A stretch of DNA of 64,000 nt, taken from positions 1-64,000 of IMG/VR virus record IMGVR_UViG_3300035670_000127. One strand, 5' to 3'. Below are positions 10,501 through 48,850 of the stretch, piece by piece; positions within the stretch are counted from its first letter, which is position 1, and each line of letters starts with the position of its first letter. The position numbers were made by a program, and so were the translations under genes. This DNA is from a virus. The notes below the pieces were generated by a model that was given only the letters and a program-made list of their open reading frames with translations, did no database searches and was not told the origin of the DNA.

Positions 10501-13500
10501 AGTCATTCCCGCGTTTTCAAGAGATTCAGATAGCTGTGGGTACTTGTCTTTTAGCTTAGTCAGTGCCGCTTCATTATCCGTTGCACCTGTTGCTAACTTG
10601 TGCATTTCGTCCTTAAACGAACCAATATTGGTTTGCAATTCAGAGGAGGCGTTTAAGTAATCCGTGGTCTTTTGGGTGATGTCTTCTATCGAAAGACCCG
10701 TCAACCCCATACTTTCTGCCCATGCCATCAGCTCCCCTTCAGACATGGTTGCCAATTGCCGTGCCGCTTCTTTAGTATTGAGTGTCAAAGCGGACGTACC
10801 TAGATTCAGATTAGGGAACTCCTTAGCTAAATCACGAATGGTCTTTTCTGCCCCGCCAGTGGAATCATAGATGCCTCTCATTGAGTCTCTAAATTTATCC
10901 ACTTGTTCAGAATTGGCATACAATTCGTCAAGGGCAGGGGCGAGTTTTAGAATAGAGTCATGTAGATTACGTTGCGACTCATTGGTCAAATCGAACCCTT
11001 GAACCAAATCAAACAGTCCCTTACGGGTCTTAGGTACCTCTAACCCCAAGCTCTTAAACGAGTTGCCAATCGACTGATTGAGGTCGGTGGCCTTCTTAGC
11101 TTGCTGTTTAAGGGAGGTGCCGGACGTGCCTCCAAATTTTTGATTGAAGTCCTCTATGGCTTTGTAGTAATTAGCAAACTGTGGGGCGCCTTTAAGGAGG
11201 GCACTGAAAGTCGCTTCACCATCTTTACCCAATTCAGAAACAGATTGAGTGAGTTTAAAAAACTCCTCACGGGTCTGTGGGAAGGCGGTATTGATGCCAG
11301 GCAACGTTTGTGACTGAATCTCTTTTAAGGAGGTGTTTAACCCAGTGAGACTGTTACTGAATTCGAGGTTAGTGCCTGACACTGAAGCGAAGTTATCCTT
11401 AAAGAAGCCAAGGGAAGCACTGAATTTATCCATGTCTCCAAAACCCTTAACAAGGTCTTCAGAAAAGACCCCCATGTTAAGACCAGTCTGTTTAAAGACT
11501 TCCTTCGTCTCCATCATTTTACCAATGAATGCCGTAAGCTCCTGTTCCGTTCCCTCGAAGCTACTTACCATAGATTTAAGTGTTTTGTAGAAACCCGCTT
11601 CGCCTTTATCTTTGATGATAGTTTCTCCGGTGACTTCCTCCCCGCTGGCAAGTTTAACGGCATCTTGAATACGGGTTGCGAACACCTCTGCTAACTCGCC
11701 ACTGATAGACTCAGGTAGGGCGATTCCAGTCAGGTCGGTGAAAATTTTACCTATCTCGCCCGTCAAGGTACCTTGCAATTCGTCAATAGGCATCCCCTTC
11801 ATTTGTTCGGCGGAGGCATTTACAAATTCAGTGAGACGTTCCCCTAATTTAGCAGACACGTCATCTTGCAACCCGCCCTTGACCGCGGTGTCGGCACTGG
11901 CAACGAATTTGGTTAAAACTCCGTCCCACGTCTCAGCCCGTGCGGCTTCACTAAAGGTACCATCTAAAACTTGTTTAAAGGTATTCTTAAACCCGCCTCC
12001 TAAATTCGTCTCGATGTCCTCGCCTGCAACCATGATATTATCGACGGCTGACTTGACCATCATCACACGCATCTTTTCAAAAGCCTTATCAAACCATTCG
12101 GGGCCTTTATTTTCCATAGCGGCGATGTGATAGCGGAAGTTATCCATTTTTCCTAAGAGACCGTTTTTATCCATTCCTAATGACTCACTCACGGCCTCAA
12201 TAGATTTTTTCGTTTCCCCTAGCATGTCACTAAGTTTTTTGACGCTGGCATCATCTAGGGATTCATGTCCCATTTTAGAACCGCCTAGCCATCCCTTCTT
12301 GGTTTCTTTAAAGCCTTTGCCAAAAGAGGCTGACATGCCCTTCATAGAAACCTCTACCCATTCGGCCTCACGTACCCATTTAGCACCGATACCGGATAAG
12401 GACACTAACTTGCCTGCTATCATTCCTCCAATCGGACCGAGTGGAGTCATAGACCCTAACAACTGGGCTGCCCCAGCGGCGGCGCCGGCCATGTCACCTG
12501 AGAGTAAAGAAGTGGCGGCTGACAGAGCCGACATACCTGGCGTCGAACCGCCTCCTAATAAAGAACTGATTCCTTTTCCAACCTCTCCAAATGAACCCGT
12601 GAGACTACCTAACTGACCGGACAAGCCACTGATAAATTTGCCAGCCTCCTCGGTGCCACCCATGAGTCCGCCTAAACTCTTAGTTAATGTGCCCGCTAGG
12701 TCGCCTTTGCCTCCTAATAAAGAGCCTATAGAAGACATGAGTCCACCACCTTCTTTACCCCCACCTCCAAATAAACTACCGATGCCTTTGGTGATAGATG
12801 ACATAAAACCGCCACCCTCACCTCCGCCACTGAATAAACTGCCAATGCCTTTGGTGATGGTACTCATGAAACCACCGCCTTCTTTACCGCCTCCAAATAA
12901 ACTGCCAATCCCACTGGTTATGGAAGATAGGAAACCTTCGCTTTTGCCACCAGCCCCTCCAAAGAGGTTACCAATACTACTCGCCATGTTTCCAAAAAAG
13001 CCCTTAACGCCATCCGTGATGCCCTTAAACATATCCATAATGCCACCGCTTTTTCCTTCGCAGGCGTCCTTTGCTACGTCCGTTGCTTCTTTTAGGTCGG
13101 CGGCCTTTTCAATAACGGGGTTGTTAGTGGCTTCGGCTAAACATTGTCCGGCGGCTTGTGACAACCCCTCCTTCGCTTGGTCTGCTATGTCGGCCACCTG
13201 TTTAGTGGCATCGCCCGTGGTTTGTACAATAGCCTCCCCTGCGGTTTGGGTACTGCCTGCGTGGGTTGTCATAGCCACGGTATCTTGAGTGATACTGGCA
13301 ACCCGCGACGCCTCGACTGCGGCCATAGCTTGGTCAAAGGAAGCGGCTGTAGAAACTTTAGTTGCACCCAAGGTAGCCTCCACCGCGGCCAGTTCCTGCT
13401 GGGCGGTGGCTTGGGCTTTGGATGCGTCGGCGGAAGCATTGGCGGCGGCTAAAACAGTTTGCGCATGTTTTTCAGAGGATTGCTTTTGAAGGTCGGTGGC

Positions 13501-16500
13501 GGCGACCTGCGTTTGCGCTTGTGTTTGCGCGGCTTTTGAGACGCCACCCAGTGCCTCTTGAACGTCCTTAGCGGCGAGTTTAAACGGGTCGGTGGCAAAC
13601 ATGGTTGCCTTCTTATTCTGTGCTAACCACTTATCTAATTCAGTCCATGCGACTCCACCGACTTGCTTGCCACCTTGTCTAATACTATGGGATTCAGAAA
13701 TACCCATTTTGCCCGTCACTTTATCCACCGTGACTTGCACGATGTGATCAATATTTTTGTCTATGTCACTCCCAGCGCGTACTCGACCTCTATCCCAGCC
13801 GTGGTCTCCTTTATCTAGGCCAATCATCATTCCTTCCCTTAATTGACCTTTGAAGTCGCCCGTTTTACGGCTGTCAATGAGGGTGCCTGTTTTATCTACT
13901 ATATTTTGAATGATGTTATGACTGGAATCTTGCAATAGCTTCATGTCGGCTTTATCAAACACCACCTCCCCCGCTTGTTGATTGATATTCTCAAAAGCGG
14001 TTTTGGTTAGTAGACTAACCCAGCCACTGCAATCAATTTTACCCAATTCGATATTCTTAGCACCCAGTTGATAGGACACGCCTTTCTGAATGTACTTGTT
14101 AGTGGTTTCTGATAACACGTCGAGGGTGCTATCATGTATTGCAACCCCTCCGCCGGTGGGTTGAGTGTGCGAAGGACTGCCTTTGATTGCTTTGGTGACA
14201 ACCTTAGTTGATTCCTCGGCCGCTTTGGCAGTAACAGTGACAACTCCTTTGCTAACCTCGCCTTGAAAGTCATCTTTAAATTGCGAAGGGAGGGGTAACT
14301 TATTCCATTTACCTATCCAACCCTGTATATATTTTTCAGCTAAGGCGACCCCACTGAGTCCTTTACCTTCACCTCCGACTAGATTTTTTTTGACGTTTCG
14401 TGTCACTTCACTACTAAGGTGATTAACGCCCGTGGTCAATGTTTTAAGTATCTGACTTAATCCGCCAGCCCCTTGATTATGCGCCATCCACGCCTTCAAT
14501 CCTTCATTGATATTCATTTTTTCAGCAGTCTCGCGCCAACCCTTGCTGAATTTATCCAATGTCTTCTGGTTAATCTCCCAATACTTAATAGCACCTTCCG
14601 CGGCGGCCCTTGGGTCATATTCTTTTCCAGAAATACCCACCTCTTTCGATGCCGCCCCCTTGAATTGGAATAATCCCATGTATCCAGAGGAGTTCTTTAC
14701 ATTCGCATTAAAGGAGGACTCCAATGACGCCATTCGACTTAATTCAAGAAGGCTGTAATTGAATTTTTTAGCCGCTCCCTCTAATGCAGATGCTACCTCA
14801 TCAGTGACCTTGACGTATTTTTGATTGGCAGATATAATCTCTTTATTGGTGGATACCACCTCTTTACTAGAGGTTGTTATTGCAGAGGGTGTTACGCCGG
14901 CAACGGATTGACTACCCACCACGCTACCTCCACCGCGACCTGCCCGACCAACTAAGACATCTGAAGCGGCCTCTTTTAAATTGGCGGCGGATTGTTCAAG
15001 GCTCTCCGCTTTACTGGCTAGAGTCGCCGCTTTTTGAATTGCCTCATTGACGTCAGCACCCAATTTATCAACTGTTTTGCCAATCCTCTCGCCGGCTTCA
15101 TTGACGGCTTTGGCGATGGTGCCAGCCGCGCTATTCGAAGCCTTCCCCACTTGTTCACCTGACTTCGCCAGGAACTGGGTAGCCTTATCCATATCGCGCT
15201 GGACAGATGAATTGGCATTCTCTTTCCCTAACCCAAATAAGCCTAAGAATTTTTCTTTTGCCTTATTTTGTAAAGCCTCTTGCTGTGATTTTAGAACGTC
15301 CTTAAAGAAACTTTTAAGGGCACTTTTAGCTGACATTTGGCCGCTTGAAAACGAATCAAAGTAGCCTCCCGCTTTTTCACGTAGGACTTCCAATGATTTC
15401 TTTTGGTCTTCTAACGCTTGCTTTTGTACGTTAGCAGATTGACGGCTTTGGATGATGCGTTGCCCCTCTTCCACCCCCACTTTACGCATAATTTCAAGAT
15501 ACTCAGTTTGCTTATCAGATAAAGTGGATTCTGATAGTTGCTTTTGCATCTCACTCAGTGCCTTCTTGCGTTCGGCCAATTCCTGAGTTTGGGATATTTC
15601 TAAAGCGATTTGTTCTGGGTATTTTTGCTGTAGGTCAAAGAGACGCGCTTGTGACTCTGTCATCGTTGCTTTAGCCAATTCATTTTTAGCCGCGGTCAAT
15701 TCTTGATTGGCATTTGCTAACAGCTTAACCTGTGCGATTTGTGGACCGTATTCAACACCTTGGTCTTTGACGGTCTGGAAGGTATCTCTCTGTTGGTCGG
15801 TGAATCCCGATATGGCCAATTCATCACGAGCATTGGACACCGTTTCATAAGACCCTTTCAGTTGCTTTGCATAATCCTCCGCTACCTTCGTCACCTCTTT
15901 ATATTTATCTGCCAACTTTAATAAATCTGATGCTTGGTCTCTTAAACTGTCTTTAATTTCACGGGCAGAATCTTTTGCGGCTTCGATGTTAGCTTTTTCC
16001 ATTTGCCTTGCGGCGGCCCCGGATTCCTTTAAAGCCTCATTCTTTTGTTTATAGACCTCCCCTAATTCACGAACCGCTTGCTTCGCTTCGTGCGCGACTT
16101 TACGGGCTTCCACTAACTCGGTGCTCTTAATCTGTTTCTTCTCCCTACGGCTACTGGTTTCTGCAATCTTTTGTTGAATCTCAAATACCTTATCCGAAGC
16201 CGCTTGCGCCTGCGCTTTAGCCGCTTCGAGGGCTTGTTTAGCACCATCGACGTCGGCTTGCAAGGCACTGACTGACGCACTCGAAGCCTCAGTTAAACCA
16301 GTTAATGCCGTCCCTGTTTGAGTGGCCATGTCTTGCACTGAACCTACTAAAGCACCGCTGTTTTGAGAGACGCCTTCGGCAAGGGTTGCAGGAATTGATT
16401 GACCTGACTTAGTGAGGTCTGATAACGGCCCCTCCTTAGCGTCTGAAAAGGGGAGATATTGACGAACCGCGGTTAACGAATCAGAAACGGTTTGGGTTAA

Positions 16501-29734: not shown

Positions 29735-29790
29735 AAATCACCTTTTGTAGTATGTGGATTTTTGTTTTAGCAGTATTCCCTGCCCATATC

Positions 29791-29825
29791 CTATATATAT
29801 GGGCAGTTTTTTATTTTTCAATACT
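29791..29825 (-). promoter_or_regulatory. Putative promoter with GTATTGAAAAAT -35 region
   Basis: The minus strand reads AGTATTGAAAAATAAAAAACTGCCCATATATA; the same 12-mer occurs in both promoters at 46565 and 46862. Confidence 0.45.
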
Positions 29826-30180
29826 TTTTTATAAAAATATTTTTATATATTTTTTAGGCACGAGTTAGCTATGCTTATTTATTATAAATATAGAAATAGT
29901 ATGCACAAGCTACCCTCCATTCATTCTGGAATAATAAGCGGCAGGTGGTGCCGGGCGACCTTAATGGCAGACCGTTTTACGCACCCCATACAAAGCGATG
30001 GCGGTTATGATTACTGTGTTCTAAATTCGTTCAATATAGCCTCTAAAATTCGATTTTACCTACACGGGTGATGACAGGCACTACACAATCACTGATTTAC
30101 TGAAATTGACGAAACCTCGCGTCATTACAGCGTTTTGTGTCTAGGATACGTCAAGTGCGTGTCTATGCAAAACTCGTTTT

Positions 30181-32499: not shown

Positions 32500-33468
32500 T
32501 TATTTAATCCTACCCTTTAACCCCGTCAACTTCGGTATAATCCGAAGTCTAACCTCCCCCGTTTCCACATCCCAAATGCGCACGGTTCTATCCCATGAAC
32601 CCGATGCGACGGATTTACCGTCCGGACTGAATGCCACCGAGGTCACCCAGTCACTGTGGCCTGTCAGGGTGTGAATCAATTGCCCGTCCTGAACTTCCCA
32701 AATCCGTACCGTTTTATCGTAGGAAGCGGAGGCAACTAATTCTCCATTTGGACTGAATGCGACTGAGGTGACGATGTCGGTATGACCTTGCAATTCAATT
32801 TCTATATTCTCTTGCGAGAATAGACGAACCGTGTTATCTGTACAACCCATTGCCAGAATACCATAGCAATTGAATGCAAGGGAGGTGGCATACCCAGTCA
32901 CATTGTAATTAAGAATCCGATACTCTTTTTCGACATCCCATACGGAAACCACACCGTTCCTTGATGCCGACACGAGTCTATTGCCGCTGTTATTAAATGC
33001 CACCGCCGCCACACCGACGTCGTGTCCTTTTAACTCAGTTACCTCGTCCGTAATGAGATTCCATAATTTCAAATTATGAACTGCGTTATCGACCCCGATG
33101 GCAACCACCTTGTTATCCGGACTGAATGCGACGCTTGTGATTCCACAAGGATAGCCTTCTTCTTCCACTCGAATGGGAATGGGTGTTACGCAAAATTTGG
33201 TTAGGTACTTCCCGTCTCTGTCCCGAAGCATCACGGTATTATCTCTTGACCCGCTGGCAATAATACCTAGACCATTAATAGCAATTGCCTCAATTGTAGA
33301 GTGATGACCGTCCATTTGCTGAATTATGTCGCCACTATTTATGTCGAATACACGGATTAGGCCGTCATTGCAACCAGCGACTAATTGGGAGTAAGCATTG
33401 AAGGTAATCGAGTTAATTCTATGAGTTTCACTTTCATAGAATGGTAGTCTGCATATATTGTGTGTCAT
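32500..33468 (-). CDS. WD40-repeat beta-propeller protein
   Basis: About seven GH..V.SVAFSP.G..LASAS.D.TVRIW[DE] repeats. Confidence 0.92.
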   Translation of the reverse strand: MTHNICRLPFYESETHRINSITFNAYSQLVAGCNDGLIRVFDINSGDIIQQMDGHHSTIEAIAINGLGIIASGSRDNTVMLRDRDGKYLTKFCVTPIPIRVEEEGYPCGITSVAFSPDNKVVAIGVDNAVHNLKLWNLITDEVTELKGHDVGVAAVAFNNSGNRLVSASRNGVVSVWDVEKEYRILNYNVTGYATSLAFNCYGILAMGCTDNTVRLFSQENIEIELQGHTDIVTSVAFSPNGELVASASYDKTVRIWEVQDGQLIHTLTGHSDWVTSVAFSPDGKSVASGSWDRTVRIWDVETGEVRLRIIPKLTGLKGRIK

Positions 33469-37915: not shown

Positions 37916-37951
37916 CATTGGTAGTGTCAAGGCATGTGTCCAATTTTTGGA

Positions 37952-39991
37952 CTACGCTTTACACTTGCTAATTTCTGATTTTATATGGCCAATATACCTG
38001 TCTATAAGCCCGTCATTATCAGTGTGGTTTCTACTAAAAACAGGGGTGTGCAATCTCGTTACTTTGTCACCCGTATCTCTCAGCAATGCGTCCCCCGTTT
38101 CAATTAGCTTATTCGCAGGGAAGTTCGCCCCTCCAAAGGTATAAGCATCCTTCGGGCTGTTAAGCAAGAATGATAGCTTGGTCGACTCCTCTATCAATCT
38201 ACTGCCACTCGCGCCAAATATCCCTTTCATTGCAAACGTGCCGACGGAGTAGAAAAAAATTCCGTACTTACGGCCAGTGGTGACAATACTAGCGATAATC
38301 GACCCCAGCCGCTCCCTAGTGCCTTTATCATTAAACAAGGCACCTACCTCCTCCAATACAATAAAGATAATAGGAAGCGTGTCTTTACCCTCTTTGGTCA
38401 ACTTCGCATTTACCGTGGTGATGTGCTGACATTGATATTTCTGTAGCAATGCCACTCGATTCTGAAGCTCGTTAGCCAACTTCTCAAGCATTTTCACCGA
38501 CTCAAGGTGAGAGGTTGCCGTCCCCTGAATAAAACTATCTTTTAGCGGCGCATACTTCATTGCCGTCGCCCCGTTTATATCACTGATATAATAGGCTAAC
38601 TTGAGTCGCTTGGTCTTAATTGACCACAGCATTTGGTAAATCAAAATAGAGTGCAATAAGCTACTTTTGCCACTCCCTTTACGTCCCACGATAAGAAGGT
38701 CTTGCAGTTTAAATCCGCACTTGATAACACGGTTAGCACCTACGTCTGTGCCTAGTAAAATTGGCAATTCAACACCTTTAGGAATTGATGCAATACTCCC
38801 TTTAATTAACTCCTTAAACAACACCGTTCCCCTGGCGTCGCTTGGTTTATTCACCACGTACACGTAATGGCTATCCTGCACCTCAAAAGTGACATCGTTT
38901 TGACCTACCCCCATTAACCTAGCTATCTCCCCTTCTGCTTTACGCCACGTCTCCTGCTGGCCGATAACAGCGGAGGTGGGAGACATGGTAAAACGAGTGG
39001 TAAAGATTCCATCGTGGCGGTTAAGGTCGGTGAAGCCTAACCCTAAAGTGATTAACCCGTCCCTTATCTTATCCTCTATTACATCTCCCTTGCTAGGGTT
39101 TGGTAATTGAGTGGTTAGTTTAGGTGACACGGCCTTAACCACTTGCAACTCCTTCTTAGGAGGTGCGGCCTTAGCCACTAGCCTGACTGGTTCTGTCACT
39201 TTAGGAGGTGCGGGCATAACAGGCGTGGTCACAATGTCTGTCAATACCGGCACCTCGTTTTGAAACGGTTTAGAAGTTATCCCAATCCTCTGGTGGCTGC
39301 TGCTGATTGGGTCGGCTGTTTCCTGAGTTAACGGCATGGGGTCTGTCGTTTCTATTGCCTGAGTTCGTTGGCCTCTCACTCGGTCTGCCCATGCGGGGAG
39401 CGTGAGAGGTGGGATTTTTTTTTTAACAGCGATTTGTATTCTATTCACTACCGGCTCCATACGGTGGCCATAGAGGTCGTAGCCCAAGACAAACATGCTT
39501 AGGCAACATACCGCAATAATCGCCAATCCCCCTAACATAACAAGCGACATAGTAACCCCAAACCACTCGACTGGGTATAACCACACCTGCCCCACGATAT
39601 TCAACATATTGCCACTTCTGTCAGTAGGGATAGGCCATTGATTCTCGATAATCTTAATCACCTCCCAACCCGATATGAAAAACTGGGTAACTATAAGGCT
39701 AACGCCTCCTTTTACCAGCACCCAAATTGTTTCGCCTTGAGTAATAATGGCCTGACATGACCCTAGCCAAAAGATGATAGACGACAGGATAATAAAAGTA
39801 TCCAAATAGTATCTGCCAAATACCATCTCCAACGTCAAATAGACAGGTACTGCCACCGTACCCACATCCCCAGGTGCGACATTGAGTGTGATAGCGTCTT
39901 GCAAATGCAACATCCCTTTGATATACCAGAAAGATATATACGAGACAATTGCACAACCCGCAAGAACTTTAATCGATCCATGTTTTTCCAT
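37952..39991 (-). CDS. FtsK/SpoIIIE-family DNA translocase with N-terminal TM segments and a Pro-rich linker
   Basis: LPILLG, LLIVGRKGSGKSSLLHSIL, IVLEE, GRKYGI and ANKLIETGDALL motifs. No C-terminal gamma domain is evident. Confidence 0.85.
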   Translation of the reverse strand: MEKHGSIKVLAGCAIVSYISFWYIKGMLHLQDAITLNVAPGDVGTVAVPVYLTLEMVFGRYYLDTFIILSSIIFWLGSCQAIITQGETIWVLVKGGVSLIVTQFFISGWEVIKIIENQWPIPTDRSGNMLNIVGQVWLYPVEWFGVTMSLVMLGGLAIIAVCCLSMFVLGYDLYGHRMEPVVNRIQIAVKKKIPPLTLPAWADRVRGQRTQAIETTDPMPLTQETADPISSSHQRIGITSKPFQNEVPVLTDIVTTPVMPAPPKVTEPVRLVAKAAPPKKELQVVKAVSPKLTTQLPNPSKGDVIEDKIRDGLITLGLGFTDLNRHDGIFTTRFTMSPTSAVIGQQETWRKAEGEIARLMGVGQNDVTFEVQDSHYVYVVNKPSDARGTVLFKELIKGSIASIPKGVELPILLGTDVGANRVIKCGFKLQDLLIVGRKGSGKSSLLHSILIYQMLWSIKTKRLKLAYYISDINGATAMKYAPLKDSFIQGTATSHLESVKMLEKLANELQNRVALLQKYQCQHITTVNAKLTKEGKDTLPIIFIVLEEVGALFNDKGTRERLGSIIASIVTTGRKYGIFFYSVGTFAMKGIFGASGSRLIEESTKLSFLLNSPKDAYTFGGANFPANKLIETGDALLRDTGDKVTRLHTPVFSRNHTDNDGLIDRYIGHIKSEISKCKA

Positions 39992-44799: not shown

Positions 44800-45300
44800 T
44801 TAGGATTCTTTCCCAAGCCATTGGTCTCTCATTCTTTCATACTTCTTGAACCTTTCGGGTTCAAACAACCTACATAATTCCATTTCTTCTCCTTTTATCC
44901 ATGCGAATGGGGCTCTTTCAGCACCATCTCCGAAGTAGTGGCCCAAATTTTTGACCACGAATCCTTCGTGGTCTTCCAGCGCAACCATATAAACGGTTTC
45001 GGCTGGTGCGCCTATCCTTGCCACAACAACTTGTCCGCACCTCACCCCTCCTTTTGGGGTTGCGGAGTACGGTGTGTATCCGGTTTCCTCGCACACCTTA
45101 TGGACAAGCTGAATTGCAGGGGTGATGAGTCGATTTAAATCTGCGAAATGAGGGAGTCGTGTTATCTTGTCAACCCTTATGATCCTGTCATCTTCATCAC
45201 AAATGAGTCTCTCGAACCCGCGATGACGGTAAGAGAGTTCTACTGCATGGGTTTCCGTTTTTTCAAACGAAAATAAATCTGAAAAGCTGTCTAAAAACAT
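44800..45300 (-). CDS. Hypothetical protein
   Basis: AGAGGA RBS. Confidence 0.65.
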   Translation of the reverse strand: MFLDSFSDLFSFEKTETHAVELSYRHRGFERLICDEDDRIIRVDKITRLPHFADLNRLITPAIQLVHKVCEETGYTPYSATPKGGVRCGQVVVARIGAPAETVYMVALEDHEGFVVKNLGHYFGDGAERAPFAWIKGEEMELCRLFEPERFKKYERMRDQWLGKES

Positions 45301-45378
45301 GGTCGTTTCCTCTTTATTTTATTGGCGATAGTTAGGTTAGAAAATCACGTCCTCTTTTGGGGTTTGTTAAATTGGTTA

Positions 45379-45436
45379 GTGTTACTCTAAAATCACCCTG
45401 TGCCGGTCCCACGGAGTGACTTTAGACTAGCGGCTA
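45379..45436. repeat. Intergenic palindromic element, copy 1
   Basis: GTGTTACTCTAAAATCAC..GTGACTTTAGA..GGCTA. Confidence 0.75.
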
Positions 45437-45673
45437 ATCACCGTTAGAAAACAGCACCGTATCTGCCGCGTAATACCTCCCTTTGTCGTGCCAAAACGCG
45501 GTGATTCTATCCATTCCTTCGCAAAATCCGAAGGATGCAATGACCGTTTGGCCATTCGTTAATTCCACCTCTCGCTTAAAGAACTTCGGCGGGAGTGCGT
45601 TTAAAAAGGAATCAAACTCCTCCTCTGTTACCTCTACAATCTTTCCTTCTTGAATCTCTTTCCAGTTAATCAT
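45434..45673 (-). CDS. Small phage protein
   Basis: GAGGA RBS; EVTEEEFDSFLNALPP pattern. Confidence 0.65.
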   Translation of the reverse strand: MINWKEIQEGKIVEVTEEEFDSFLNALPPKFFKREVELTNGQTVIASFGFCEGMDRITAFWHDKGRYYAADTVLFSNGD

Positions 45674-45693
45674 ACTGTAGTCCTCGTTTATTG

Positions 45694-45742
45694 GTGTTAC
45701 TCTAAAGTCACCTCTAACCGAGTGACTTTAGAGTAACGGCTA
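45694..45742. repeat. Intergenic palindromic element, copy 2
   Basis: GTTACTCTAAAGTCAC and GTGACTTTAGAGTAAC form a 16-bp perfect stem. Confidence 0.8.
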
Positions 45743-46138
45743 TTACCGAGATGCCATGCAAGCCGCATCCGAGTTCCTGTGAGCTTTTCTTATGAGACCC
45801 ATCGTTTTGGAATTTTTTGGGAGTGGTGATAAAACGAAGTTGCCTTCGTGCGTCATCACCTCCAATACCTCCTTCTCTTTCACCGTCTTTGTAATCCCGT
45901 TGCCTTCGTAATAGGTTTGCCAAGTCACTCGGCAACCTTCATAGGTATCCCCAGATACAAACCCAAACCCACATTCACCCGACAAGATAATCCATGCCAC
46001 CGTTCTGGCGGTTTTTTCAGATACGGTGACTCCTTGTTTTCTTGATTCTCTCAAGATACTTCTAACGTAAACTTGAGTTGCTTCCTTAGAGTAAGAGGCG
46101 GATTGTTCTGCTAATGTTTCTGCTAGTGAGTATTTCAT
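45743..46138 (-). CDS. Hypothetical protein (MKYSLAET...)
   Basis: AAGGTG RBS before ATG 46138. The track start at 46180 lies inside the ribozyme. Confidence 0.65.
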   Translation of the reverse strand: MKYSLAETLAEQSASYSKEATQVYVRSILRESRKQGVTVSEKTARTVAWIILSGECGFGFVSGDTYEGCRVTWQTYYEGNGITKTVKEKEVLEVMTHEGNFVLSPLPKNSKTMGLIRKAHRNSDAACMASR

Positions 46139-46162
46139 GTAACACCTTGTTAATTTTTGAGG

Positions 46163-46229
46163 TAGCTGCCTCGTCAGCACCGGGAGTCAATTCTCGGTGG
46201 ACTCCCCAAACATCGGGGAGTTTCGGCTA
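46163..46229 (-). ncRNA. Type II hammerhead ribozyme
   Basis: Minus strand: GCC-GAAA-CUCCCC(loop)GGGGAG-UC-CACCGAGA(loop)..CGGUG-CUGACGA-GGC. The complete core is present (CUGANGA, GAAA, GUC cleavage triplet). Predicted cut between 46200 and 46199. Confidence 0.88.
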
Positions 46230-46474
46230 TTTATTTTGGGATGCAAGTTGAATTGCATCCGCTGGACTAACCCTATACCATTTGTTTGGGAAGTGTACCC
46301 ACATCGGGGAATCCAATACTATTGCTACGAAGCGACTTAAAACAGCACAAATTCCATTCTCTCGGTTTATAAATCCTTATGCAGTCTCGCGACTCTATAT
46401 CCATACACTTTACGCTTAACCGTGTCTCATCCGCGCTTCGCTGGCAATTGATAATTTTTTAGATTGTTACTTCA

Positions 46475-46510: not shown

Positions 46511-46564
46511 CGTGGTTATTCGTTTGTAGTTACTTCGCTATCCATATAATAAGTCCATCCCTAA

Positions 46565-46882
46565 ATTTTTCAATACACTTTACTTTAAATATTTTCTATA
46601 CTAAAGTTTTCGTGTTATACTTTTTATTATTCAAGTATTGTGCCACACGCCAAAAGCTAATGAAAATGCGCCTGTAGCGAATGTGGCGGTTTTCACTTTT
46701 ATGACATTTTGTCAGCCTGTATTAGCATACTAATCGTGGGTCGGCGCATAAATAAAGGGTTTGCGGTATATTTGGCTGTTATGGCATTTTGTCACCTAGT
46801 CCAAGAAAGTTAATGGTGACGCGGGTTTTGATTATGACAAAATGTCAAAGCGATATTTTATAAGTAAAGTGTATTGAAAAAT
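46565..46882. promoter_or_regulatory. Divergent control region bounded by a 21-bp perfect inverted repeat, with three TGACA-N3-TGTCA operators
   Basis: AAGTAAAGTGTATTGAAAAAT at 46862-46882 and its inverse at 46565-46585. Palindromes at 46702-46714, 46782-46794 (one mismatch) and 46835-46847. Confidence 0.7.
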
Positions 46883-46942
46883 ATCAGATTGGCACTATAT
46901 TATAATCAATAAAATAATTCACATAAGCGCGGGTGTACACGC

Positions 46943-48301
46943 ATGAAAAAAGTAGCTAAGGTGCTGATTGTATCACCAAATCATCAGTTGTCATTACACA
47001 TCGGGGGTGTGGTAAAAAGGTGTGGTTATAGCGCACGGGTTATCTCGTCCGCTTTTGATATGAATGAATTGGATGAATACCAATTCGTTCTGGTTGACGA
47101 AGAATTTGTAGAGTTTGCAAGTGAGGGTTGGATTATCCTTTGCCGACAAGAAACCGCTGATTATCACCGTCAAAACGGCCTTATTCCTATCGTTAAGCCG
47201 TGCCTGCCCCATGATATTTACCGGTGCTTAGGGGTGTCCCCACCTAGCTTGTTAGTGGGCAGTTCCGAAGCGATGGTGTTGCTTCGGAAAATGGTTAGCA
47301 GACTTGCACCCCACGGGTTGCCTATTTACATTCATGGTGAGACGGGCGTGGGTAAAGAAGTGGTTGCAATGGAATTGCACAACCTGTCAGGCCGTCAGGG
47401 GGAGTTGGTCGTGGTCAATTGCGCCGGCTTTAGCAATGAGCTGTTAGCAAGCGAGTTGTTTGGACATGAAAAAGGCTCTTTCACGGGCGCGGATAAGGAG
47501 AAGAAGGGGTTATTTGAACTGGCGCACGGCGGAACTATCTTTTTAGATGAGATAGGTGATATGCCTCTCCAGTGCCAGGCGAAGTTATTGAGGGTTTTGG
47601 AAAATGGTACTTTCATGCGGGTGGGAGGGACTAAACAACTTTCCTCCAATGCCCGCGTGGTGTGCGCAACCCATTACTCGCTTCCTCAATTGGTTAAGGA
47701 GAAGCAATTTAGGGGTGACTTATACCAACGGTTAAACGGCTTTACGATTAACATACCACCTCTTAGGGAACGGCTAGGTGACGTGCCCGGACTGGTTCAG
47801 TCATTCCTGCCGGGCGTCGGCTTTACTGGGGAGGCAATGCAATACATGCAATCGCTTCGCTGGCCGGGCAATGTCAGGGAACTGAAACAGGTCTGCCAAC
47901 GGATTGAGATTTTTAGGGATGGGGAGGTGACTAAGGGTGTGGTCAAGATGGTCACCGACATTGACATCGTGGTTAATGATGCACTCCCACTACCTGAGTC
48001 CAAAGGAGGGGATCATCAAGAGATTATCGGTGCGTTAGCTAACCTCACTGCGACGCTATCTAGTATGCAAGCCGGCGGGGCAGTCAAGACAGTGGTGGCA
48101 GTTGAAAAAGAAGAGAGGTCGGTTAATAATGGTGTGGTGTTGAGATTTAACGGTGTACCCACTCGAAACGACGTAATGAGGGCTTACTTCAAGGAGGTTT
48201 ACGACCTTTGCGGGGGTAACATGAAACGAGTGGCAGAGGCAATGGGTATCTCTCGCACCACGTTGTACACAATGAGAAGCGAGTTAGAGTTAGAGGAATA
48301 A
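46943..48301 (+). CDS. sigma54-type enhancer-binding protein (NtrC family AAA+ with Fis HTH and a degenerate receiver)
   Basis: GETGVGKE; SELFGHEKGSFTGA; FLDEIGDM; FRGDLYQRL; WPGNVREL; GNMKRVAEAMGISRTTLY. Confidence 0.92.
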   Translation: MKKVAKVLIVSPNHQLSLHIGGVVKRCGYSARVISSAFDMNELDEYQFVLVDEEFVEFASEGWIILCRQETADYHRQNGLIPIVKPCLPHDIYRCLGVSPPSLLVGSSEAMVLLRKMVSRLAPHGLPIYIHGETGVGKEVVAMELHNLSGRQGELVVVNCAGFSNELLASELFGHEKGSFTGADKEKKGLFELAHGGTIFLDEIGDMPLQCQAKLLRVLENGTFMRVGGTKQLSSNARVVCATHYSLPQLVKEKQFRGDLYQRLNGFTINIPPLRERLGDVPGLVQSFLPGVGFTGEAMQYMQSLRWPGNVRELKQVCQRIEIFRDGEVTKGVVKMVTDIDIVVNDALPLPESKGGDHQEIIGALANLTATLSSMQAGGAVKTVVAVEKEERSVNNGVVLRFNGVPTRNDVMRAYFKEVYDLCGGNMKRVAEAMGISRTTLYTMRSELELEE

Positions 48302-48305
48302 AGGT

Positions 48306-48815
48306 ATGACTACCACAGAAAGAAGTAAGGGATTGATAGAAAGGGAGATGTTGAAGTTCCTTAGAAAACATCCACAGGCCGAGCTATTTTCAAGGGAGGC
48401 TATACTGGGTGAAGTTTTCACAAAAGGGGAATCTAACCTGTTAACACGGGTGCTAAAAAAGCATGGGTTCTATCCAATCAATTCACCGCAAGGGAGGCTT
48501 TGGAGCCGCAAGCCGCGTGGTGAAAAGTGGATTAACCCAAGGAGGGCGGTTTTAGAGGCGGTATTGGATTTATATCTAAGAAGCGAGAACCCAGAGGAGG
48601 TCACGACTCAAGAGTTCCTAACCCGCTTTTTACCCGATGCCGTGGCAACCCGGATGTCTGATAAACACCTCCTTGCAAGGATTTTGGAGAGTAAGGGATG
48701 GGCTAGGAAAAGTGAGGCTATGCCGCTTCTGAGAGGCACTCGAACGGCAATGGCTAGGGTGTGGATTAAACCTAAACCAAGACCCAAAAGACAGGAGGTT
48801 AAACCAGTAGAATAA
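48306..48815 (+). CDS. Basic DNA-binding-like protein with two winged-helix-like repeats
   Basis: Two similar ..L.R.L...G[FW]..R.W units, reminiscent of primase/VapE C-terminal domains. Confidence 0.5.
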   Translation: MTTTERSKGLIEREMLKFLRKHPQAELFSREAILGEVFTKGESNLLTRVLKKHGFYPINSPQGRLWSRKPRGEKWINPRRAVLEAVLDLYLRSENPEEVTTQEFLTRFLPDAVATRMSDKHLLARILESKGWARKSEAMPLLRGTRTAMARVWIKPKPRPKRQEVKPVE

Positions 48816-48821
48816 GTGAGA

Positions 48822-48850
48822 GGCCGTCAGCTAAATTGACGGCCATTTTT
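48822..48850 (+). terminator. Rho-independent terminator
   Basis: GGCCGTCA and TGACGGCC followed by a T run. Confidence 0.7.

Follow-up and report, generated by a model that had tools for sequence, protein, structure and literature searches.

What does a complete activator of sigma-54 transcription do in a phage genome, and which promoters does it serve? This question is raised by the stretch of DNA analysed here (the window, i.e. the first 64 kb, positions 1-64,000, of IMGVR_UViG_3300035670_000127), in which one gene of a divergent region codes for a bacterial enhancer-binding protein (bEBP) of the NtrC/FleQ type. The record is a single, linear IMG/VR virus record of 81,363 bp with a GC content of 45.6%, 92% complete according to CheckV. 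Enhancer-dependent sigma-54 transcription is usually treated as a cellular device for stress and nitrogen control, and the textbook phage takeovers of transcription rely on the phages' own polymerases, sigma factors, sigma appropriators or antiterminators. The explanation that we favour, and that we hold to be on balance probable, is a cascade in which early sigma-70 promoters lead to the production of the bEBP, which then activates middle promoters of the sigma-54 type.

The open reading frame (ORF) in question codes for an intact sigma-54 activator. Pfam searches detected Sigma54_activat (PF00158; 7.9e-62, 208 bits for a cut-off of 20.2), AAA_lid_14 (1.2e-10) and a Fis-type helix-turn-helix (HTH) domain, HTH_8 (PF02954; 4.7e-05), whose score of 23.5 bits lies just above the cut-off of 22. 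The HTH can also be aligned with that of P0007. Residues 102-329 align end to end with the solved structures of FlrA, FleQ, NtrC1 and PspF (E 1e-60 to 1e-56). All the bEBP motifs are in place, namely the Walker A motif GETGVGKE, the loop GSFTGA, the Walker B motif FLDEIGD, FRGDLYQRLN and WPGNVREL, and the arginine-finger region and sensor II are intact. The complete AAA+ activator with a GSFTGA loop and a Fis HTH that had been described in the initial annotation, made from the sequence alone, was thus borne out.

The GSFTGA loop is aligned with the GAFTGA of FlrA and FleQ, i.e. the L1 loop that contacts region I of sigma-54, and it is no oddity. Among the 118 next-best cellular and metagenomic homologues, GSFTGA is found in 66, GAFTGA in 31 and GAYTGA in three, the pattern being missed in 18. 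Every motif is retained in eight natural variants of the protein that are 92-98% identical, one of which (P0002) has GAFTGA. With the bEBP as a query, searches of genome and metagenome contigs yielded only relatives of at most 51% identity, and the closest named homologues are proteobacterial.

The N-terminal domain required other tools. Its first 100 residues match no Pfam family, no Response_reg match was found in the whole record at E<=10, and only six matches were identified among 1.84 billion representative proteins. Its alignment with receiver domains by hhalign is weak (prob 6.7%) and in register. An AlphaFold2 model of residues 1-105, whose alignment included the protein of a relative phage described below, has a (beta-alpha)5 fold (predicted local distance difference test, pLDDT, 86; predicted TM-score, pTM, 0.77). 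The best PDB matches of the model found by Foldseek are receiver domains (TM 0.66-0.75), including 3jte (TM 0.72), CheY4 and the receiver of the bEBP DctD. A full-length model built on eight near-identical rows had a pLDDT of 37 and was not used. The acid pocket of receivers is not preserved: S-P-N replaces the magnesium-binding acidic pair after strand 1, and in the relative the lysine after strand 5 is replaced by N. The aspartate after strand 3, D52, is invariant in the N-domain alignment. No HATPase_c domain, the ATPase of histidine kinases, was found by Pfam in the 81,363-bp record, which extends to the entire record the lack of a kinase first noted for the window.

'Eroded receiver without a kinase' therefore seems a fair description of the N-domain, and because of these two features the bEBP is likely to be either constitutive or controlled by a partner. 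In particular, since the receiver fold lacks its acid pocket and the phage a kinase, the protein is probably active without phosphorylation. ORF169, the next gene, might be considered a candidate partner or DNA-binding protein. It has no recognisable DNA-binding family, and an atlas search gave scores of at most 0.85 and no lead. The closest parallels among known proteins are FleQ of Pseudomonas aeruginosa and FlrA of Vibrio cholerae, which gave the best sequence matches in the PDB (E 1e-60 to 1e-57) and are similarly built of a receiver-like domain, an AAA+ domain whose loop is of the GAFTGA type and a Fis-type HTH, with no cognate kinase. FleQ and FlrA are not known to be phosphorylated. In contrast with them, the present protein is phage-encoded, its N-domain belongs to a short (~100 aa) and rare family, and its putative target sites have GA at -12. 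Residues ~47-101 of the N-domain also match six to eight separate stretches each in P0291 (2694 aa), P0293 (1650 aa) and P0295 (634 aa), as if this half of the domain were a repeat unit in those proteins.

We then searched for sites at which such an activator might work. The initial annotation had reported no convincing -24/-12 promoter nearby and had overlooked TGGCACAATACTTGAA, which we call P1; its caution keeps a point, as GA replaces GC at -12 in all our sites. A genome scan for TGGCAC-N5-TTGC had been proposed. No TGGCAY-N5-TTGC site was found in either phage record, this one or that of the relative. Two matches to TGGCAC-N5-TTGCW at one mismatch, one of them P1, are present in the 81 kb, a number close to the chance estimate, and what stands out is their placement, both being intergenic and facing genes. 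The pattern TGGCA[CT]-N6-TGAA occurs four times in the 81 kb (P1 to P4) for 0.42 expected in a Markov model, and one of 300 simulations reached four; as the motif was defined after viewing the data, these chance figures overstate its significance and the comparison with the relative is the better test. All four copies are intergenic, in a genome of which 13% is intergenic, and each faces a gene. Each has a GG-containing TGGCAC-type element at the correct spacing, as have all three sites of the relative. P4 heads a block that includes genes for a ProQ-C-like protein and DUF5131. Reading the four sites as sigma-70 promoters with TTGAAA as the -35 box was rejected, as none of them has a -10 hexamer at 16-18 nt.

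These sites are accompanied by inverted repeats located 50-197 bp upstream of the -24/-12-like elements. P1 is preceded by three TGACA-N3-TGTCA dyads. P3 and P4 have in common a 30-nt block with a different dyad, GTCCAA-N3-TTGGAC, 62-63 nt before TGGCAT and in the same orientation. This block also lies between the divergent P2 and P3.

To find the relative, we searched IMG/VR with the portal protein. It is represented by two contigs, G304 (83,384 bp, 91% complete) and a second one of 27 kb, which do not differ over the 16.7 kb compared. Its portal and Mu F-like proteins are 72 and 79% identical to those of the present phage. Its 422-aa bEBP is encoded behind the Mu F gene, in the matching convergent position, followed by the homologue of ORF169. 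It is 47% identical over residues 1-441, including the N-domain, and has a GAFTGA loop and a different second HTH helix. In G304, TGGCAY-N6-TG[AC]W has three matches, all with TGA, and the reversed control has none. Two of them, P4' (after an FtsK-like gene) and P3' (in a divergent region), are intergenic and located 49-50 nt before ORFs. In the alignments at P3' and P4' the promoter block stays alike and the flanking DNA has diverged. A TGGCAA-N6-TGAA on the opposite strand mirrors P2 (P2'). The third TGGCAY match, inside an ORF of >1,000 aa, is probably due to chance. P3' and P4' are both preceded, 56-59 nt upstream, by yet another dyad, CTATACA-T5-7-TGTATAG (G304 ~11990-12060 and ~46730-46790). 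The relative thus keeps the bEBP, ORF169 and the GA-type promoters without P1, its dyads or, in the parts searched, the leftward unit and the ribozyme described below, and we regard the former as the conserved core because of this. P1 with its three dyads, the ribozyme and the three ORFs of the leftward unit appear to be an addition in the lineage of the window.

The region upstream of the bEBP gene contains both types of putative promoters (Table 1). The three palindromes noted initially proved to be real, two of them perfect (TGACATTTTGTCA and TGACAAAATGTCA) and one with a mismatch (TGGCATTTTGTCA). These two are the only perfect copies in the genome. At no more than one mismatch, eight copies were observed in the window for 1.81 expected, and none of 100 shuffles reached eight. 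Dyad 2 is perfect in contigs of two other metagenome runs, one from a lake and one labelled as a fungus metagenome, in which position 46784 is A. Of the seven differences of the 287-nt lake contig (X4), five are listed, and the four besides position 46784 touch neither the dyads nor P1. This run comparison is based on contigs only, covers part of the stretch and leaves 202 differences outside those listed, and we claim no conservation of P1 from it.

The mirror-image promoter-like sequences with a perfect 21-bp element were likewise confirmed. A search of the genome at up to four mismatches yielded just the two copies (46565-46585, minus strand, and 46862-46882, plus strand), each of which contains the -35 box of an outward-facing, sigma-70-like promoter, PL and PR, respectively. 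The dyads are located between these promoters and do not overlap them. A third promoter of the same build (GTATTGAAAAAT, 13 nt, TATATA) is found at ~29790-29826 on the minus strand, and GTGTATTGAAAAAT-N13-TATATT is also present upstream of the bEBP gene of the relative (L293, ~14520-14565). We read GTATTGAAAAAT followed by 13 nt and TATATT, TATTAT or TATATA as the signature of a small family of early promoters whose -35 region is extended, with three putative members here and one in the relative. The 16-mer TTATGACATTTTGTCA was found in 62 viral stretches, a single time in 61 of these, which we took as chance. Three exact copies of it are grouped within 92 bp (168-259) on an unrelated IMG/VR contig of 8,280 bp (L201). 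A second TGGCAC is found at 46890-46895, inside the PR spacer, with no TGA at the -12 distance (TGGCAC-N6-ATAA). A sigma-54 polymerase bound at this site might, speculatively, act as a competitor of the early promoter.

Table 1. Coordinates and main traits of the features discussed (window numbering; P2 and P3 are numbered on the complete record).
Feature	Position	Strand	Remarks
PL, left 21-bp copy and sigma-70-like promoter	46546..46585	-	TTGAAA 46573-46568, 16 nt, TATTAT 46551-46546; leftward, downstream of P1
P1, putative -24/-12 promoter, TGGCACAATACTTGAA (TGGCAC-N5-TTGAA)	46630..46645	-	leftward; GA instead of GC at -12
Dyad 1, TGACATTTTGTCA	46702..46714		perfect; centre 64 bp upstream of P1 GG
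Dyad 2, TGGCATTTTGTCA	46782..46794		one mismatch; centre 144 bp upstream of P1 GG
Dyad 3, TGACAAAATGTCA	46835..46847		perfect; centre 197 bp upstream of P1 GG
PR, right 21-bp copy and sigma-70-like promoter	46862..46901	+	TTGAAA 46874-46879, 16 nt, TATATT 46896-46901; into bEBP gene
bEBP gene, 452 aa	46943..48301	+	pseudo-receiver ~1-100, AAA+ sigma-54 interaction domain 102-329, long linker, Fis-type HTH ~408-447
ORF169	48306..48815	+	4 bp after bEBP stop; no family found; homologue (51% identity) also behind the bEBP of the relative
Terminator-like hairpin	48822..48844	+	between convergent ORF169 and Mu F-like gene
P2, putative -24/-12 promoter	72828	-	faces 61-aa ORF; outside window
P3, putative -24/-12 promoter	72950	+	outside window; heads small ORFs, then PDDEXK nuclease, Rad52-like annealase, DUF2325 protein, primase
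P4, putative -24/-12 promoter, TGGCATAAACTGTGAA	37857..37872	-	45 nt before ATG of ORF111 (37811); orthologous site in the relative
Element B, dyad GTCCAA-N3-TTGGAC	37938..37952		in 30-nt block recurring at 72.87 kb
Type II hammerhead ribozyme (RF02276), predicted	46160..46228	-	in leftward leader, ~60 nt before ORF131 ATG (46138)
Leftward unit	44800..46138	-	ORF131 (46138-45743, Shine-Dalgarno AAGGTG), ORF79 (45673-45434), ORF166 (45300-44800); would be served by P1 and PL

The dyads and the divergent P1 would together form a classical layout, that of a bEBP gene divergent from its target. In the bacterial pairs pspF-pspA and zraSR-zraP, the activator is expressed from a sigma-70 promoter, its sigma-54 target lies opposite, and the enhancer sites are between the two. 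The locus resembles them in having dyads between a bEBP gene and a divergent, putative sigma-54 target, and differs from them by a second, sigma-70-like promoter downstream of P1 in the same direction and by a hammerhead in the leader.

From these arrangements we infer the following course of events. Host sigma-70 RNA polymerase would first read the early promoters (GTATTGAAAAAT, 13 nt, TATATT-like), including the mirror-image pair, and PR, the right-hand one, would express the bEBP and ORF169. The bEBP, probably without phosphorylation, would then form an AAA+ ring in which ATP and the GSFTGA loop serve to open the sigma-54 polymerase of the host at the TGGCAY-N6-TGAA elements of P1 to P4. 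At P1, the three TGACA-N3-TGTCA dyads would serve as the enhancer of the bEBP. The transcript from P1 and PL would be trimmed by the hammerhead just before ORF131, and P3 would drive the recombination and replication block, with the PDDEXK nuclease, the Rad52-like annealase and the primase.

The retention of an intact bEBP in the eight variants and in the relative supports such a cascade. Using Pfam families, we found in the whole record no sigma-54 DNA-binding or core-binding (rpoN) domains, no sigma-70 region 2, no tyrosine integrase and no second sigma-54 activator. The absence of a sigma factor among the phage's own genes argues for the use of the sigma-54 of the host, and the proposal of the initial annotation that the phage uses host sigma-54 transcription gained support from the intact activator, the motif before four gene blocks, the orthologous sites of the relative and other viral contigs. 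The geometry of the dyads (64, 144 and 197 bp), together with the perfect dyad 2 of two other runs, is consistent with a role as an enhancer. The other proposal, in which a bEBP takes the place of a CI repressor in a lysis/lysogeny switch, was not supported. No integrase was found, the sole HTH_3 (CI/Cro-type) match in the record is sub-threshold (11.8 bits for a cut-off of 23) and falls on the bEBP's own HTH, and the dyads are off the promoters. It is further weakened by the relative, which keeps the bEBP without the dyads, the leftward unit or the divergent layout.

We also looked for bEBPs in other viruses, a survey suggested in the initial annotation. Of 66 IMG/VR loci found with the present bEBP as a query, 59 have an ORF in which a GAFTGA-type loop is combined with a Walker A motif, and 45 of these ORFs (37 distinct sequences) code for at most 300 residues. 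Behind 27 of the 45 small bEBP ORFs, a canonical TGGCA[CT]-N5-TTGC is located 3-46 bp after the stop codon on the same strand; many of these loci are near-copies, and the 27 are not independent cases. The small viral bEBPs (loci L015-L064) have 220-300 residues, GSFTGA or GSYTGA loops and no HTH. One of them, at locus L032, matches PHROG 7998 ('unknown function'), and the promoter behind it heads genes for an exonuclease, a Sak4-like annealase and SSB. This layout parallels that of P3, as both promoters head a recombination/replication block. The minimal phage bEBPs (PHROG 7998) thus resemble the present system in being phage-borne AAA+ sigma-54 activators beside -24/-12 promoters that head replication or recombination genes. 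In contrast with the full-length protein, enhancer-like dyads and TTGA sites described here, they have no HTH or N-domain and directly precede TTGC promoters. At another locus, L012, a canonical site in divergent orientation lies 120 bp upstream of the gene for a 485-aa bEBP.

A phage precedent for the use of host sigma-54 is YuA, which depends on it according to a 2008 study as cited in a preprint (bioRxiv 10.1101/2023.10.13.562163). In the citing passage, YuA resembles the present phage by its use of host sigma-54 promoters alongside sigma-70 promoters, and that passage mentions no phage-encoded activator, unlike the bEBP here. The pairing of small IMG/VR bEBPs with canonical promoters and the YuA precedent both support the sigma-54 reading of our sites. 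In the open literature, subscription journals and supplementary files being outside this search, we found no description of a phage bEBP that has both a GAFTGA loop and an HTH. The nearest case in print is Htm, a phage AAA+ protein without a GAFTGA loop or an HTH, which a passage of a preprint proposes to remodel host transcription. What is new here is a phage bEBP of full length whose GA-type promoters are conserved with it, the use of host sigma-54 by a phage being known.

Besides the chance figures discussed above, several observations weigh against the cascade. The C of the -12 GC of sigma-54 promoters is highly conserved according to the consensus literature. Nevertheless, GA is found in seven of seven sites, four here and three in the relative, and P4 in addition has G for T at -15. 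In 43 IMG/VR loci with small bEBPs (400 kb), TTGC sites outnumber TTGA sites by 39 to 2. The TGACA-N3-TGTCA dyad was found nowhere in the relative, and no P1, leftward unit or divergent layout is present upstream of its bEBP gene. Because P2 to P4 and the relative are devoid of TGACA dyads, the link between dyads and bEBP is purely one of adjacency and geometry. The cascade would also require a host that carries rpoN. In the whole record, GATC is present 14 times for 312 expected; no copy was found of at least 18 palindromic hexamers, each expected 11-23 times, and four more have a single copy. This avoidance of palindromes fits a host rich in restriction systems. Finally, cyanobacteria rarely carry rpoN, as stated in a passage of PMC12316311.

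The alternative that best survives these observations accepts a sigma-54 regulon and assigns the TGACA dyads to another protein, such as ORF169 or a product of the leftward unit, which would use them as operators to tune the divergent sigma-70-like promoters. The bEBP would then act at P2 to P4, through GTCCAA-N3-TTGGAC or from solution. bEBPs without a DNA-binding domain do act from solution, and the 45 viral bEBP-like ORFs of at most 300 residues leave no room for such a domain. In the relative, the bEBP, ORF169 and P2' to P4' are retained with neither a TGACA dyad nor P1. What has been conserved is thus the pairing of the bEBP with promoters of the P2-P4 type, which supports this alternative. 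In both phages a dyad lies 56-66 nt before TGGCAT at P3 and P4, and between the phages both the dyad sequence and the second HTH helix differ. However, one of the two upstream dyads of the relative also looks like the terminator of the preceding gene, and ORF169 belongs to no recognisable DNA-binding family. Moreover, the TGACA dyads, which are 13-bp inverted repeats, separate the bEBP gene from a divergent -24/-12-like site, and their distances to this site are usual for enhancers. All in all, we consider this explanation unlikely.

The A at -12, found in all seven sites of the two phages, could also be viewed as a private promoter dialect and not as decay. The sigma-54 of the host clade might read the -12 element differently, or a conserved partner such as ORF169 might retune or replace its reading. 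We consider this idea rather improbable. Were it true, the phage promoters would be silent with host activators and fire only with the phage bEBP, making up an orthogonal, virus-owned, enhancer-dependent system. In its extreme form, the host would be devoid of rpoN and the phage would supply an unrecognised substitute for sigma-54.

Another alternative denies the phage promoters any link with sigma-54. The bEBP would be cargo for host sigma-54 promoters, e.g. those of envelope, motility or stress genes, and TGGCAY-N6-TGAA would be read by another factor. The departure of all seven sites from the canonical promoter at -12 would find an explanation in this manner, the nearest solved AAA+ relatives, FlrA and FleQ, are flagellar master regulators, and Htm is a proposed case of a phage AAA+ protein acting on host transcription. 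Nevertheless, the sites agree exactly with sigma-54 promoters in their spacing and their -24 half, no sigma-70 -35/-10 reading fits, the phage codes for no sigma factor, and motif and bEBP have been retained together in two phages. We regard this explanation as quite doubtful.

The known relatives of bEBPs that work without sigma-54 (TyrR, Rhodobacter NtrC) lack the GAFTGA loop, which counts against a host devoid of sigma-54. Such a host, as most cyanobacteria would be, with the ATPase ring doing other work or having an unrecognised phage partner, is very unlikely: the extreme avoidance of restriction sites, the GATC depletion, the lake-water and 'fungus' metagenomes among the runs containing this DNA and the rarity of rpoN in cyanobacteria (PMC12316311, in the passage cited above) speak for it, but two lineages of no more than 47% identity have both retained the loop that contacts sigma-54, along with all the motifs. 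In addition, GGAG, GAGG or AGGA (core Shine-Dalgarno) precedes 38 of 72 ORFs, and the closest named homologues are proteobacterial. These observations count against a cyanobacterial host without being decisive.

If the favoured cascade holds, a full-length phage activator kept with its promoter set in a distant relative, together with the many viral pairs of small bEBPs and promoters, would represent a further, undescribed route to the timing of middle genes. Phage promoters of the sigma-54 type would stay tightly silent until the phage ATPase is made. The consistent GA at -12 raises a simple, testable question on how sigma-54 promoters are read, and the activator and its promoters may offer an orthogonal pair for synthetic biology.

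The leftward unit codes for three proteins that belong to no Pfam or PHROG family, and no homologues of ORF131, ORF79 or ORF166 were detected in the 21.8-kb locus searched around the bEBP gene of the relative. The order of elements is P1, PL, the leader with the ribozyme, ORF131, ORF79 and ORF166, with ~340-420 nt of leader between PL and ORF131. The predicted type II hammerhead scores 48.6 bits for a gathering threshold of 37 over model positions 1-66 of 66, with the CUGAnGA and GAAA cores and the GUC site present, and it is the only over-threshold Rfam match in the 83 kb searched. Cleavage is predicted after the GUC near 46200 (by count). No hammerhead was found in the 27.9 kb scanned of the relative. 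The 10-nt 5' arm of one ribozyme stem-loop (ACATCGGGGA on the plus strand, 46210-46219) is exactly repeated 91 nt upstream (46301-46310), and this second copy might control cleavage by competing for pairing with the 3' arm. A contig from run X2 diverges at 46207, inside a ribozyme stem-loop, and its next letters again make a C4/G4 stem followed by the conserved core. Hammerheads in intergenic DNA of phages and prophages are known, as described in a passage of Perreault et al. 2011 (PMC3088659). The present one is similar to the type II elements of that passage in being a full-length, over-threshold match in a phage intergenic leader, and differs in that its leader belongs to a unit probably under sigma-54 control and in the repeat of the stem-loop arm 91 nt upstream.

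Lastly, we examined the gene content of the record, which is that of a tailed phage. It includes genes for a Mu-type portal, a Mu F-like protein, a large terminase and a lysozyme. The replication genes are the phage's own and code for a sliding clamp, a primase, a D5-type helicase, PIF1, a Rad52-like annealase, a PDDEXK nuclease and a thymidylate-synthase fusion. A Mu-like transposable phage was rejected on account of these replication genes (clamp, primase, D5 helicase, PIF1 and Rad52) and because no transposase was found among the ORFs scanned. Similarly, a host gene at a prophage edge was rejected, as the bEBP gene lies inside an 81-kb virus record and has a syntenic counterpart in another. 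No tRNA gene was detected in the window. The terminase and the portal are at most 43% identical to those of named phages (Streptomyces phages, and Burkholderia and Curvibacter phages), and in 301 sampled genomes of the order of G001 the portal has matches at 32-38% identity only. A protein search with the portal returned no named relative, and a group of portals (P0256-P0283) is roughly 70% identical to it. A single ORF of 7,052 aa occupies positions 1528-22686 of the window, on the minus strand. The phage also codes for a WD40 beta-propeller protein of 322 aa (32500-33468, minus strand), whose relatives in other metagenomes are 75-84% identical and whose cellular matches, from fungi, Nostoc, Fischerella and others, are 30-45% identical.

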